Below, one piece after another: positions 3,001 to 9,000 of a stretch of 9,158 bases of DNA. The stretch lies in the IMG/VR virus record IMGVR_UViG_2519899561_000027; one strand, 5' to 3'. Each line of letters begins with the position of its first letter. Positions within the stretch are counted from its first letter, which is position 1. The DNA comes from a virus (Duplodnaviria > Heunggongvirae > Uroviricota > Caudoviricetes). The position numbers are program-made.

Positions 3001-6000
3001 CCCTGACTTTTTTCCATTCCTCCCAGTAAGACGGATACACGCCTTTTGTGCACTTTGCCCACACTGGCGGCTTACCATCCGGATACTGGATCTTGTTTGT
3101 AAAAACCTCGCTTTCAATAAATTTTTTTCCGTGACAGCAGGGGCACTGTTTTTTGCTCGCCGCGCTACGGGCATAATCTTCAAACGCATACGAAGCCATA
3201 ATACGCATCACTGCCGGTTTTATTTCTGCCGGGAGTTTTCTTAACGCCGCCACGCGATCACACCGACTGAGTGCATATTCTGTCAGCAATTCTGTTGCCC
3301 GCTCTCTGTCATTCATACTAATGCCCATTTTCCCAAGGAACGCAGAAAACCCCATCTCAGCCCGATTCTGTGTCATGCCCTGCGCGGCCATCACATCAGT
3401 GATACTCAGCGCATCTTTTGACGTTGAGGCCGATGCATCGGTCAGGCCAGGGGATTTTGGGGAGTAGTATTTCGGTAAATCTTCCAGTTTCATTTTTTAA
3501 CCTGCCCTTCAAGCATTATGGGGTAAATCTTCACCCCCAGACGTCCACCAGATACTGGCTTTCCACGTACAATATTGATTTCATCAAACTGCTCATCGTC
3601 CATTAACAACCCCGCGTGCGTCAGCGCATCCAGCGGTGCTTTCAGAATATTGTCCAGGTCACGGCGGCGCTTATCCGGTGGTTCTGCAATAATTTTTATT
3701 GCCAGCCGTCCGGACAGGCTTAATTTCAGCCGCTGCTGGCGAACAATAAGCGCCACTGCCCGGCGATAACGCTCCCCGGCTTTTGATACAAAATATGTGC
3801 TGCCACGGCGTCGCCAGTAAGTGTTCACCGTCGGCGGGTAAGGTAAAACCAAATCTATGAGCATCAGTCACCTCTTTTACCCGAGCACGCCAGTCGCAAA
3901 GGCGTGATCAAGAAAACGAAAAATTAACTCAACCTGAGAGCCGTACTTTTTCTCAAACTTCAGCGGGTCTGCATGAAGTTCGTTGTGGTGCTCCCGGCAC
4001 AACGGTAGCGTGAAAATATCGTGGGCCTTTGTTCCCACTCCCCCCTGACCATGACCAATCAGGTGATGCGGATCGTCAGCTGGCTTACCACAACACGCAC
4101 ACGGCTGTGTCTTTACCCAGCGCGTGTATTTCTCATTAACCCAACGGCGACGTTTAGGCCGCCTCATGAACGATTCAGGAGACTCCGGATCAACGGCGAT
4201 ACTGACAACCGTTTTTTTCTGTGGTGGATTTTGTTGCTGGTGGACGTGAAGTGGCAGCGCAATATTTTTTGTGCGCTGCTTCAGTATGCTGATGGCTGTC
4301 TGTTCTCCCGGTACGATGTCACTCTCACGGTATACGGAGCGGATTTTTTCCGCCGGTAATCCCAGCGAACGACGCGCTACTGCCTCAGGTAGTGCATCCA
4401 CCACCTGATTGCAGGCCGCCCACCAGGATAATTCGGCCAGCGATAACTCCCTCTCCTGCGTACCGCTTATTGCGTGACGGATGACATCAATCATCCAGGC
4501 AACCAGATTCTGCTGAGCAAGTTGATCGAGTGATTCTGATGTCTGGTCGCGCAGCTGGTTGTCGCAGTGCCAGCACAACACCATCGCGCCGGTACCGTAA
4601 CGGTGAATGACCGTTTCGCTGTGATGATAATCGCCGTGTGGCCACTGGCAGGATTTCACGTGACGTAATAACCAGTCAGACAGTGCACCAGCACCACCAG
4701 CAGCACGAATAACCCGCTCATCGCTGAAAAATGGCAGTAATGTTTTATCCTCTGCCAGCGGCTGGCGAACGGCGGGAACGACTCCGGACGGCAGACCGCG
4801 CATGTTTTTCGGTTCCGGCTCCACCAATATTCTGCCGTTATGGAATGCTGACATTGATTCACGGCCCGGCTTAAGGACCACCATCCCGAGTTCCGGCACC
4901 AGAACAGGTCGAAGTAATACCCGCACGTTACCTCCAGATGCGCTGCTGGAATGTGCGGGACGGACGCGGTGGGCATTCGGAATAAGGGAGCCTGACAGAG
5001 ATTATCCAGTGACGACGATAGAAACTGAGATCTTTCTGAAACTCGTAACCACGTCTGCGGTAGCACTGGATCAGCCATTCGGCCTGTTCTTCAGTGCATG
5101 GGTCATGCTGGAACCAGTCAGATTTGAATGCATGAGAACGCCGCCCATGCCTGCTGGCAGGGGCGGCGGAGTTATCCGAATTGTAAAATCTGGTATCGTG
5201 CGCCATCGGTTGTCTCTGCTGGCGCAGCAGGTGCCAGTTGTTCAGGCTGGCGTGCGGCAATATTGTATCTGATTTCTGTTGTCGTCAACAGGCAGTGTGC
5301 TATCATCGAATAGTGTTCTATCCTACTCCGGGAGGTTTACCATGCGTACAACCCAACAATTCAGCATTACATTAACTAACGAGATGGCTGACATGGTGCG
5401 CGCCCGTGTGGCTTCCGGTGCCTATGCTTCAGAAAGTGAGGTCATTCGTGAAGGGCTTCGCGCACTGAATGAGCGCGATAAAGCAATCGAAGCGTGGTTA
5501 ACGCATTCAGCCGCCCCATCTCTCGATTCTATCCGCGAAAACCCAAACAACGGACGCTCCATTTCACAGGTTCGCGCCGCGATTCGAGCCGGGAAGTAAT
5601 CTGCATGACATATGAAGTCATCATTACTCCTGAGGCCGAACAGCAGATAATCAACCTGCACAGATATATAACGGAGAAAGCAGGGAGCGTCATTGCTGAC
5701 AATTATGCCAATGCACTTCTTGATTATCTTGATGGGTTTTCCACATTCCCGCATCGGGGCAATAAACGCGATGATATTCGACAGGGAATGCGGGTAACTC
5801 ACTTCCGCCACAGAACGATTATTGCTTTTGCCGTTGATGGCAATAAAGTCTTTATCGCAGGTATTTATCATGGCGGACAAAGTTATGAAACCGATTTCTT
5901 ATAAACTTTTCCCCACATAATTCCAGTATTAGAATAAACCGTCCGCCCCCTCTCTTACTGGCGGATTCGTAGGCTATATAAATCAAAGATCCCCGACTCA

Positions 6001-9000
6001 TGTGTGTGTCGGGATCTTTTTTCAGCAAATTATCCCCAGCGGCAAATCGAATACACAACCAGCGCCACCGCCATTGCAATACCAACATTTGAGAAGGCTT
6101 CAGGCCAGCTCATTGGCGCACCTCCTTCGGCGGTTCTGGTAGCGGCATCCAGTGTGTGGCTTCACACACGATGGGCGCACCGAAACACTGCGCATACTGG
6201 AAGTCACCCGTATTATCCAGGTTAAAACCTGTAAACTGTTCACCCGTGCTGGACACAAACAGTTGTACATCAACACCAACTGGCGGCATTCGCTCACTAC
6301 AGCTTATCCAACCATCCGGAGTTACCGGAGAATTGCCAGCCTTGCGCATGGCAATCTCCATGATTTCAACCATATCTCCTGGTGGAATTTTACAATGCTG
6401 ACCAATATGCCTCTGCTGCCTGGCATATTCGAGGATGTGCTCCAGCTTGATACGATTAATCATGATTTATCTCCCTGAAGCATGGCTTCGCGGCAGTCGT
6501 TCCAGCCTTCAGCATAATCACTATACGCAAGAGGCCAACCGTTTCTGTATTCACGCGGCAACTTATCAGGCACTACCAGCGCTGGCGGCGCGGAGAATAG
6601 TGGTTTAGGTGATATTTCCGCACGTTTTGCGTATGCTTCAACTGTGTCAGGGTTAAACAGGATTATGTTTTCACCGCATTCCCACGCTATCGGTTCTGCT
6701 TCCAGCGATGCCAGTGCAATTTTGAATAGCTCACCCTCTACCCTGGCCATCTCTGAATTAGGGTAACAGTTCGCAACCGCTATTTTTAATTTGGCTTCCT
6801 TGATTAATTGCTCTTTGGTTAATTCAGTCATTTTTCATTACCACCCTTTCAGGCGGTCTCCTTATGTTCTGAGGGTGCAGGAATCCCTCCGGTTAAGGAT
6901 TAAATTTTTAACAGTGCTGAATTTAATTATTCAGTTCTGGATTTTGACGCCCTGCGTATCCGCGCTTTCGCGTTACGCTCAATCTGAATTAACTTTTCTA
7001 TATTTTTTCGCCTTTCCTGTTCCTCCTGGCGCAATAGCTTTACATCATCTGCCAGTCTGGTTTCTCTTTTCGCCACAGAGAGCATCCAGTCAAACGGCTC
7101 CACAACTGAACCGCAGATTTTACAGCGGACCTGACGCTCTTTTTCGTCAACCCGGACAGAGGCGTGATGGCAGTATGGTCTTTCCGATGGCTCATAAAGA
7201 AAATTAACCTGATTACGTGGGTCATCCTCTTTTACCGGAAATAAAACAATATTACTTAACTCATCTTCTGGTTTTATTTCCATGCTCCTCTCCTTTGATG
7301 CGAATGCCAGCGACGCGTAATGCGTGTTCTAGGTCAATCAGGTAAAGCCAACTGCCATTTTCTTTAGGTATCATGACTTGTCGCTCATCTGCATTTATCG
7401 GGTGTCCATATCGAAGGTCGTAGCGAGTCGGTAATTGAACTTCCCGCGCTTCCAGTTCAGCAATGCGCTTACTCCCATCCGAGATAACACCTTCGTAATA
7501 CTCACGTTGCTCGTTGAGTTGTGATTTTGCTTCTTCCAGTCCATCCAGCAAATCAGCGATAATATCCGCTTCCCGATGACGGATGTGACGCTTAAACGCA
7601 GCAAGAGCCGCATCACAATCCCGTTCAGCATTTGGGCTGTCCGGGATAGCCTGATACCACGCCAGCGTCGACTGATAGTTTTGTGCTGCCTCACGAAGCG
7701 CCTCATAGTTAACCTCTCTCATTGAGCCACCTCCTGATAAATCACCGCATGCCCCAGTTTCTCCGCCAGTGCCAGCTCTGCCTTAGCGCCCGCTGACCGC
7801 TGCCAGCCATTCAGCATATAAACCGCATCCACACAACGAATCATTGCCATGCAAATATCCATGTAGTGCGGCTGTGTCAGCCCGTCCGGAAGTACTGCCG
7901 GGTTTAAGACGGTATGCCCTTCCCGTTTCAGTGCTTCTTCCGCCCTGTGAAATGCCTCGCGGTTGAAATTTTCATATCCCGTCATTGGACCGGCGATATA
8001 AATTCTCACCCTCACGCCTGAACCCTCCTGTCGAAATAAACGTAGTTATTCACTGCACGCAACTTCATTCCGAACTTTTCGGCAATTTCCCGTCGGGGTA
8101 CACCGCGCTGATGCAGTTGCCGCGCCAGCTCAATATCACGCTGTGAATATTTTGCCGACGGGTGAAAATCACCACGTAACATCATGCTGATGCCCAGCTC
8201 CCGTGCCTTCGTTCTCACTGCCGCTTCAGTTCGTCCGATAAGCGCGCCAATGCTTTTTACCTTCATTGTTCCCGCGCACTGCCGGAGTATCAGAATTTCA
8301 GCCCGGCACCACGTCTTCCACCCACTCACCGCTGCTGTTCTCTGGTGGCGGTAATATCCCGGAGAATATCCCGGCACTTGTTCAGCTCCCGCAGCGCGGC
8401 GCAGACTCGCTCCCACTTCTGAACCTGACCTTTTACCCGGCGCAGCTCGCGGTTAGCCACATGCAGCGATGGTAGAATCAGGTCATCTGCTTTCGTTTCG
8501 GTGACCGATGGCTGTAACTTCACAATGTCTTCCACGATTTCTGTTTTCATTTCTTCCTGTGTCGTCGTTTCCTGGACTGGTAACGCAACACCTGCTGGCT
8601 GAGGAAAGGCTTTACCATCGGTTTCCGCTACGGATGCAGCTTCCGGCTCTGCCGGTAAATCAGCGCCCGGTATGCAGTAACGAAATTTACCGCCCTGATT
8701 CACGCGAATCAGACGCCCTTTGCTGATTGCCATGGCCAGCGATGAATTCGCCCGGCGGGAGGTAATCCCGAACATCAGTGCCAGCTCATCCGCCGTTTGT
8801 GGGCCATGTTGTTCAATCGCCTCAGTCAGCATTTGCGCTGTCACTTTCGGTACCGGTGACACTGGTTCACTTTCACCTGCCGAGTTAAATGGCCTCTTCA
8901 GGTCAACTCATAAGGTCAGGTACTTTTTTGTGTCAGAATGCGATTGAGAGCGTCTTACAAGGAAAACTAATGGTAAATCTCCCTCCTGAGCTGGGGTCAC

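Follow-up and report, generated by a model that had tools for sequence, protein, structure and literature searches.

A probable type II ParD/ParE toxin-antitoxin operon of canonical form, borne as a moron-like cassette by a Qin-type prophage remnant in its nin-equivalent region

Canonical ParDE toxin-antitoxin (TA) systems, as described for RK2, Caulobacter (ParD1-ParE1; 3KXE), Mesorhizobium (5CEG and 6X0A), Mycobacterium tuberculosis (ParDE1; 8C24), and Vibrio cholerae (ParDE2; 7R5A), consist of a bicistronic operon in which the antitoxin gene comes first. It codes for a ribbon-helix-helix (RHH) ParD protein of about 85 amino acids (aa), followed by the gene for a ParE toxin of about 100 aa with an N-terminal helical hairpin and a three-stranded sheet. 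These are the closest families to a two-gene module found in a 9,158-nucleotide stretch of tailed-phage DNA (Caudoviricetes; IMG/VR record IMGVR_UViG_2519899561_000027), this whole stretch being referred to below as the window. ParE-fold toxins also occur on lambdoid prophages of enterohaemorrhagic Escherichia coli (EHEC), namely in the PaaR-PaaA-ParE systems of E. coli O157:H7 (PaaA2-ParE2; 5CW7 and 5CZF), in which DNA binding is supplied by a separate regulator, PaaR. Further prophage toxins of the ParE family, accompanied by small DNA-binding antitoxins, are found in ParESO/CopASO of the Shewanella prophage CP4So and in PfiAT of the Pseudomonas phage Pf4. CP4So ParESO/CopASO has been reported to stabilise its own prophage (PMC12548467 and PMC8706911), and a review cites it together with O157 PaaR-PaaA-ParE as prophage stabilisers (PMC12548467).

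The module of the window very probably represents a ParD/ParE operon of the canonical type II kind; it forms a moron-like cassette within a Qin-type prophage remnant, where it occupies the nin-equivalent region. It shares the antitoxin-first bicistronic layout, the protein sizes, and the toxin architecture of the canonical systems. Unlike these, it falls in a subfamily that is borne by prophages, mainly of enterobacteria, and is known here from sequence and a structure model, its toxin being only 14-22% identical to any solved ParE. The toxin model resembles that of O157 ParE2 (Foldseek TM about 0.78), but the identity between both toxins is 17-19% and ParE2 was absent from the matches of the sequence searches. 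Moreover, there was no third regulator gene, as no plus-strand open reading frame (ORF) occurs between the parE stop codon and the terminator, and the antitoxin of the window has an RHH DNA-binding domain of its own; membership in the PaaR-PaaA-ParE family was therefore rejected. Similarly, PfiT (9w3a) was among the best structural matches of the toxin, but ParESO/CopASO and PfiAT differ from the present pair in host, phage type, and antitoxin family, and the identity is low (16%). The pair is already known as a TA system by annotation, in RefSeq (ParD and RelE/ParE), in both PHROGs families, and in phage ArgO145; type II TA pairs are common on prophages, and the value of the present analysis beyond a correct annotation is small.

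All elements of the cassette were found on the plus strand between positions 5279 and 6022, in the order promoter-like site, parD (5342..5599; 85 aa; WP_001260976.1), parE (5605..5904; 99 aa; WP_000220602.1), and intrinsic terminator, with a gap of 5 nt between both genes. The earlier note had placed the module at exactly these coordinates, which run from the first base of the promoter -35 hexamer to the last T of the terminator run. It had also described transcription opposed to the surrounding operon, and every flanking gene, from position 8862 down to 1039, is indeed encoded on the minus strand. Its claim that the operon possesses its own promoter and terminator was supported for the terminator by RNA folding, the promoter being a prediction from consensus match, position, and conservation. 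The sigma-70 promoter-like site (5279..5306, plus strand) consists of TTGTCG (5279-5284), a 16-nt spacer, and an extended -10 element TG-n-TATCAT (hexamer at 5301-5306), with 9 of the 12 consensus positions matched and the TG present. It is supported by where it lies and by being conserved in all copies of the cassette, the hexamers being unchanged in ArgO145 and in Stx2a phages that carry an orphan parD. A Shine-Dalgarno sequence, GGGAGG (5330..5335, plus strand), was read from the sequence 6 nt before the parD ATG at 5342. A non-coding stretch of 80 nt separates the parE stop (5904) from the terminator (5985..6022), which comprises a hairpin (5985-6019), detected as two inverted repeats (I5 and I7) and by RNA folding, and a T-run (TTTTTT; 6017-6022). 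On the plus strand, the 3' region folded into a 12-pair stem followed by UUUUUU (z = -2.9; none of 200 shuffled sequences folded as well), and on the minus strand the same stem is followed by UUUGAUUUAUAU. Since the hairpin lies between an A-run and a U-rich stretch, the predicted terminator probably acts in both directions. It is kept in ArgO145 and in the prophage of E. coli FHI_NMBU_10. A simple terminator scan missed the hairpin, probably through the bulge in its stem and its long loop; RNA folding reveals it. A scan of the whole window against Rfam (E ≤ 1) returned nothing in the region 5200-6130, i.e. no sok-like or other known RNA in the cassette. An antisense ORF of 152 aa (5422-5880, minus strand) was judged spurious, having no Pfam match and overlapping two conserved genes.

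The identity of the antitoxin was supported by several collections. Its sequence matched ParD_antitoxin of Pfam (PF03693; 1.5e-7, 32 bits, cut-off 21), the NCBIfam model TIGR02606 "type II toxin-antitoxin system ParD family antitoxin" (1.2e-14, 54 bits, cut-off 46), and, over the full length of the family, phrog_6494 "antitoxin from a toxin-antitoxin system" (1.3e-56). Residues 3-51 matched ParD chains in the PDB (3kxe_C, 7ycv, 7b22, 6x0a_a, 7ycs_D, 8c24_C, and 5ceg_A), and the PGAP name of WP_001260976.1 is "type II toxin-antitoxin system ParD family antitoxin". The N-terminal RHH domain (CopG/Arc/MetJ) that characterises the ParD family is thus present in this antitoxin, as judged from PF03693 and TIGR02606.

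The toxin matched ParE_toxin of Pfam (PF05016; 5.8e-10, 40 bits, cut-off 23) and the full-length family phrog_5232 "toxin" (9.8e-43), and PGAP names WP_000220602.1 "RelE/ParE family toxin". Homology searches could have placed the two proteins in families unrelated to TA systems; both fell in TA families, above the curated cut-offs. Yet PF05016 and the name "RelE/ParE" span gyrase poisons as well as RNases, and the branch of the fold was tested separately. A phmmer search of the toxin sequence against the PDB gave one weak match (E = 0.021), a family profile being required for significance; a profile built from 17 toxin homologues retrieved ParE-type toxin chains only (6x0a_A at 9e-6, 5ceg_B, 7ycs_A, and 8c24_A). 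Toxin and antitoxin each matched one partner of the same solved complexes (6x0a, 5ceg, 7ycs, and 8c24). An AlphaFold2 model of the toxin, made with the family alignment (pLDDT 87, pTM 0.77), showed the order strand, two long helices, and three strands. In a Foldseek search of this model against the PDB, the top 23 matches were all ParE-type (TM 0.72-0.81), among them Mesorhizobium ParE, PfiT, M. tuberculosis ParE1 and ParE2, Pseudomonas aeruginosa ParE, V. cholerae ParE2, PrpT, E. coli O157 ParE2, and Caulobacter ParE1. That the toxin would instead be a RelE-like, ribosome-dependent mRNA endonuclease is very unlikely. The Pfam and PGAP names are indeed given at superfamily level only, and RelE, YoeB, and YafQ were among the Foldseek matches at probabilities of 0.9-1.0; the structures of RelE, YoeB, YafQ, and HigB, however, scored below the ParE-type ones (TM 0.42-0.65). 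In addition, the comparison of the toxin profile with K-12 RelE by hhalign was not significant, its alignment stopping before the C-terminal catalytic region of RelE, and the toxin is paired with an RHH antitoxin of the ParD type instead of RelB or YefM. Based on the model, the toxin is a member of the ParE branch of the RelE/ParE fold. The two-gene operon of an RHH antitoxin and a ParE-fold toxin proposed in the earlier note is hence one on which family, PDB, and fold matches agree.

Concerning its setting, the window has a 100% identical counterpart in the chromosome of E. coli O111:H- 11128, which belongs there to a degraded lambda-like prophage with copies of IS1203 on both sides and a truncated DUF1627 gene. 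In the chromosomal locus extracted from this strain, the IS1203 copies (1-1128 and 12727-13940) flank the segment that contains the window, and this segment lacks genes for replication, immunity, and an integrase. One IS1203 copy adjoins the truncated DUF1627 gene, and the other lies past the holin gene and a partial ORF, on the side of the lysis genes. The intact relative in E. coli FHI_NMBU_10 has a repressor gene and then, on one strand, the order cro-like, YdaT, O-like, P, DUF1627, and, further on, parDE on the opposite strand, followed by a 92-aa ORF, DUF968/YdfU, RusA, Q, a methylase gene, and tRNAs. The same layout of the Qin/Rac type was found in phages 813R8 and 689R5, with Ea22-like genes between O and YdfU-RusA-Q. 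Based on these intact relatives, the location in the nin region claimed in the earlier note holds in the form of the nin-equivalent interval, from P to Q, of a Qin-type lambdoid prophage. An early-left (pL) location had been suspected because the cassette recurs in phage ArgO145 (93.7% identity), there close to the integrase gene in the early-left region, and because the right neighbours in the window (DUF551, Ea22-like, and DUF1627) resemble early-left genes. This assignment was dropped, as the intact relatives run from P over DUF1627 and parDE to Q. FHI_NMBU_10 further carries a relB gene with a RelE/ParE-family partner beside its repressor gene (12652-13133 of the extracted prophage locus), so that two type II TA modules occur in one lambdoid prophage.

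The boundaries of the mobile cassette, which comprises the promoter, both genes, and the terminator, were derived from homology breakpoints with respect to ArgO145, E. coli NZRM3614, and phage 689R5, which place it at about 5271-6029 on the plus strand and give a size of about 760 bp. Homology with ArgO145, in which the cassette has another genomic context, extends from 5271 to 6113. In the hokD-carrying relative NZRM3614, homology ends at 5251 and picks up again at 6094. Phage 689R5 has only a 27-aa ORF (6030-6113) in common with this part of the window and is diverged past the stop of that ORF (6030), without the hairpin; the terminator is therefore part of the parDE cassette. A promoter-like site and a terminator of its own, an orientation opposite to that of its neighbours, replacement by hokD in a relative, and occurrence in another genome region in ArgO145 and Yersinia are the features of a moron, and all of them were found. 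The parDE pair can thus be described from its sequence as a moron-like cassette, for which expression in the lysogen is predicted.

Both genes are under purifying selection, the ratio of nonsynonymous to synonymous substitution rates (dN/dS) with respect to two diverged copies (ArgO145 and FHI_NMBU_10) being 0.06-0.10 for parD and 0.07-0.09 for parE. The alignment of the toxin with 17 homologues, down to 49% identity, contained 20 invariant columns. The toxin family comprises 35 close clusters in Enterobacterales and one in Desulfovibrio, and the profile search returned 2494 representatives at E ≤ 1e-3. A ParD gene directly precedes the toxin homologue in Yersinia (70% identity) and in Desulfovibrio (about 50%). 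By these data, parD and parE are real, selected, and co-inherited genes. A decaying or silenced pair, present in the remnant as an inert passenger with no current function, is highly improbable. It would fit the degraded state of the host element, with its IS1203 copies on both sides and its truncated DUF1627 gene, and toxin-less derivatives do occur in other phages; but both ORFs are intact and of full length, all residues that are invariant in the family are present, the low dN/dS values argue for maintenance, and the promoter, Shine-Dalgarno sequence, and terminator are conserved. Furthermore, the cassette was 100% identical in all 20 best-matching genomes listed, several of which are O111 strains.

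The parDE block was present in 321 of 5426 complete E. coli genomes and the junction between the 92-aa ORF and parD in 328 of them (about 6%), EHEC O111 strains among them; given the closeness of these counts, the nin-region context appears to be the usual one for parDE in E. coli. In Yersinia prophages (loci L009-L011, 3738-4288), a homologous ParD and ParE pair occurs in the early-left region, between recombination genes and SieB/repressor, and is opposed in orientation to most of its neighbours. By sequence comparison, the family recurs as a moron in temperate phages of enterobacteria, in at least two regions of the genome.

The position occupied by parDE has been filled by other toxin modules as well. 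The flanks in E. coli NZRM3614 match the window at 3203-5251 (96%) and 6094-6862 (88%), and the interval 5252-6093 is exchanged for 1070 bp with hokD and two small ORFs. This relative provided the comparison, suggested in the earlier note, with a prophage lacking the insert, showing a hokD cassette between the same flanks. The hok junction of the NZRM3614 type was found in 81 genomes, and phages 813R8 and 689R5 have hok in the slot of parDE. In the K-12 prophage Qin, the order is ydfT(Q)-ydfU-rem-hokD-relE-relB. Qin hokD/relBE and the hok cassettes of lambdoid phages thus share with parDE the slot immediately upstream of DUF968/YdfU-(RusA)-Q. They differ from it in belonging to unrelated toxin families, one being a type I toxin of the membrane and the other the type II RNase RelE with its antitoxin RelB, and, in Qin, in being co-oriented with Q. 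The parallel with Qin drawn in the earlier note consequently stands for the relative position and fails for the reversed orientation, Qin hokD and relBE lying on the same strand as Q. Its suggestion of a recurrent hotspot for addiction cargo was borne out as far as comparison goes (hokD between the same flanks, hokD-relBE in Qin), not as a statement on function. This is clean comparative evidence that one defined nin position in Qin-type prophages alternates between parDE, hokD, and hokD-relBE.

By analogy with the ParDE systems of RK2, Caulobacter, Vibrio, and M. tuberculosis, the lysogen would transcribe the operon from the sigma-70 promoter of the cassette. This promoter would be repressed by the N-terminal RHH domain of dimeric ParD, and the C-terminal half of ParD would neutralise ParE; the conserved pairing and the purifying selection lend indirect support to the toxicity and neutralisation predicted here. 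Loss of the element, or an infecting phage that shuts off host transcription, would halt the supply of the labile ParD; the ParE set free in this way may poison DNA gyrase, a function expected from family membership, and would thereby break DNA, induce the SOS response, and stop growth or kill the cell. The outcome would be addiction, with the prophage segment retained, or the exclusion of competing phages, or the two together. The terminator would be shared with the convergent 27-aa ORF and add a stop between the early nin genes and Q, so that delayed-early transcription towards Q would have to read through it and run antisense over parDE.

Several points weigh against this reading. Not every ParE-fold toxin is known to inhibit gyrase. 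The number of promoter-like sites in the scanned region (2) is what chance predicts (1.9), and a search of 5240-5341 for operator-type inverted repeats of at least 8 nt found none. A literature search on these protein accessions retrieved nothing, i.e. no experiment on this pair. Finally, a PADLOC scan of both proteins and two neighbours (E ≤ 0.01) gave no match and no specific support for a role in defence. By eye, an imperfect palindrome, GTTGTCGTCAAC, was spotted over the -35 hexamer (5278-5289). It contains the overlapping -35-like hexamers of two divergent promoter-like sites, the number of such sites being no higher than chance; the plus-strand one (TTGTCG) is that of parDE, and the minus-strand one (TTGACG, an 18-nt spacer, and AATATT) faces the block of the 92-aa ORF, DUF968, RusA, and Q. 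ParD binding at GTTGTCGTCAAC, if the site is real, could affect both promoter-like sites.

The result with PADLOC also bears on the possibility that the pair is primarily an anti-phage module, acting by abortive infection or superinfection exclusion, and not an addiction module. This possibility, which is somewhat unlikely, would agree with the moron architecture with its own promoter and terminator and with the homologous pair in Yersinia, which adjoins SieB, a known family of exclusion genes. An orphan parD with an identical DNA-binding half in Stx2a phages can be read as a counter-measure, a possibility raised in PMC12502783. Besides the lack of a matching PADLOC model, no published ParDE pair shown to defend against phage was found in a limited literature search, and the pair resides in a defective, IS-truncated remnant, for which selfish retention fits equally well. 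The literature on ParDE in Stx phages and prophages yielded only a note on orphan ParD and general reviews.

The orphan in question can be traced to the ParD/ParE cassette of the window. Many Stx2a phages match the window only at 5271-5618 (87% identity). Homology at their locus takes in the promoter, the full parD, and the bases between both genes, and stops 14 nt into parE; because of these retained parts, the orphan parD is best read as a derivative of this cassette after loss of the toxin gene. The first 47 residues of the orphan ParD are identical to those of ParD of the window, and its C-terminal half differs at 12 of 38 positions, this half being the usual toxin-binding part of ParD. 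In one of these phages (Stx2a_JNE122398; 3001-4050 of the extracted locus), the orphan parD is followed by a lipoprotein-like ORF of 93 aa and a HigA-like helix-turn-helix ORF. Antitoxins of this kind, "orphan" ParD and HigA, were described in a 2025 study of EHEC phages, which left their role unexplained (PMC12502783). The traceability of an EHEC orphan ParD to the present cassette provides a concrete pair for asking about neutralisation across prophages. A more far-reaching proposal holds that the slot upstream of the 92-aa ORF and DUF968-RusA-Q is a dedicated exchange site for toxin modules and that parDE and the orphan parD reflect conflict between prophages; taken as a whole, it is improbable. 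Under such a conflict, resident ParE would kill or exclude once its own ParD is depleted, and the surrogate ParD of an incoming Stx2a phage would repress the resident operon, neutralise ParE, or both, as a means of anti-addiction or counter-defence. It is also possible that release of a gyrase poison triggers the SOS response and thereby induces co-resident Stx prophages.

Two small ORFs border the cassette, both on the minus strand and both outside the TA module. On the left, the 92-aa hypothetical ORF (4928..5206; PGAP coding sequence, phrog_1212) precedes DUF968/YdfU-RusA-Q. It had no match in Pfam, and an identity as Rem, hinted at by a label 'toxin to Rem' in phage 813R8, was rejected, as it shows no similarity to K-12 Rem. 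On the right, the conserved 27-aa hydrophobic ORF (6030..6113; MSWPEAFSNVGIAMAVALVVYSICRWG) is convergent with parDE. Its start codon shares bases with the stop codon of the DUF551 gene (ATG and TGA within ATGA) and is preceded by a strong Shine-Dalgarno sequence, AGGAGG, at 6127..6122. By tblastn, it was found in 93 phage records (VT2-Sakai, Min27, ArgO145, and others); it is not annotated by PGAP in O111:H- 11128 and carries a 1-nt deletion in 689R5. It may code for a small membrane protein. Its interpretation as a type I toxin belonging to the cassette was rejected, since most of the phages listed for it, such as VT2-Sakai and Min27, are not among the phage records that match parDE.

Elsewhere in the window, two small RNAs scored above the Rfam gathering score, namely the prophage sRNA AgvB (anti-GcvB; 592-653, plus strand; 96.5 bits) and STnc100 (655-847, minus strand; 144.5 bits). 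Both are downstream of the methylase gene; Stx phages have stx in this interval, between Q and the lysis genes. A tRNA-like element (933-992, minus strand) was matched by the Rfam tRNA model (37 bits) and annotated by PGAP as tRNA-Met (923-993), without a call by ARAGORN; it may represent a degenerate phage tRNA.

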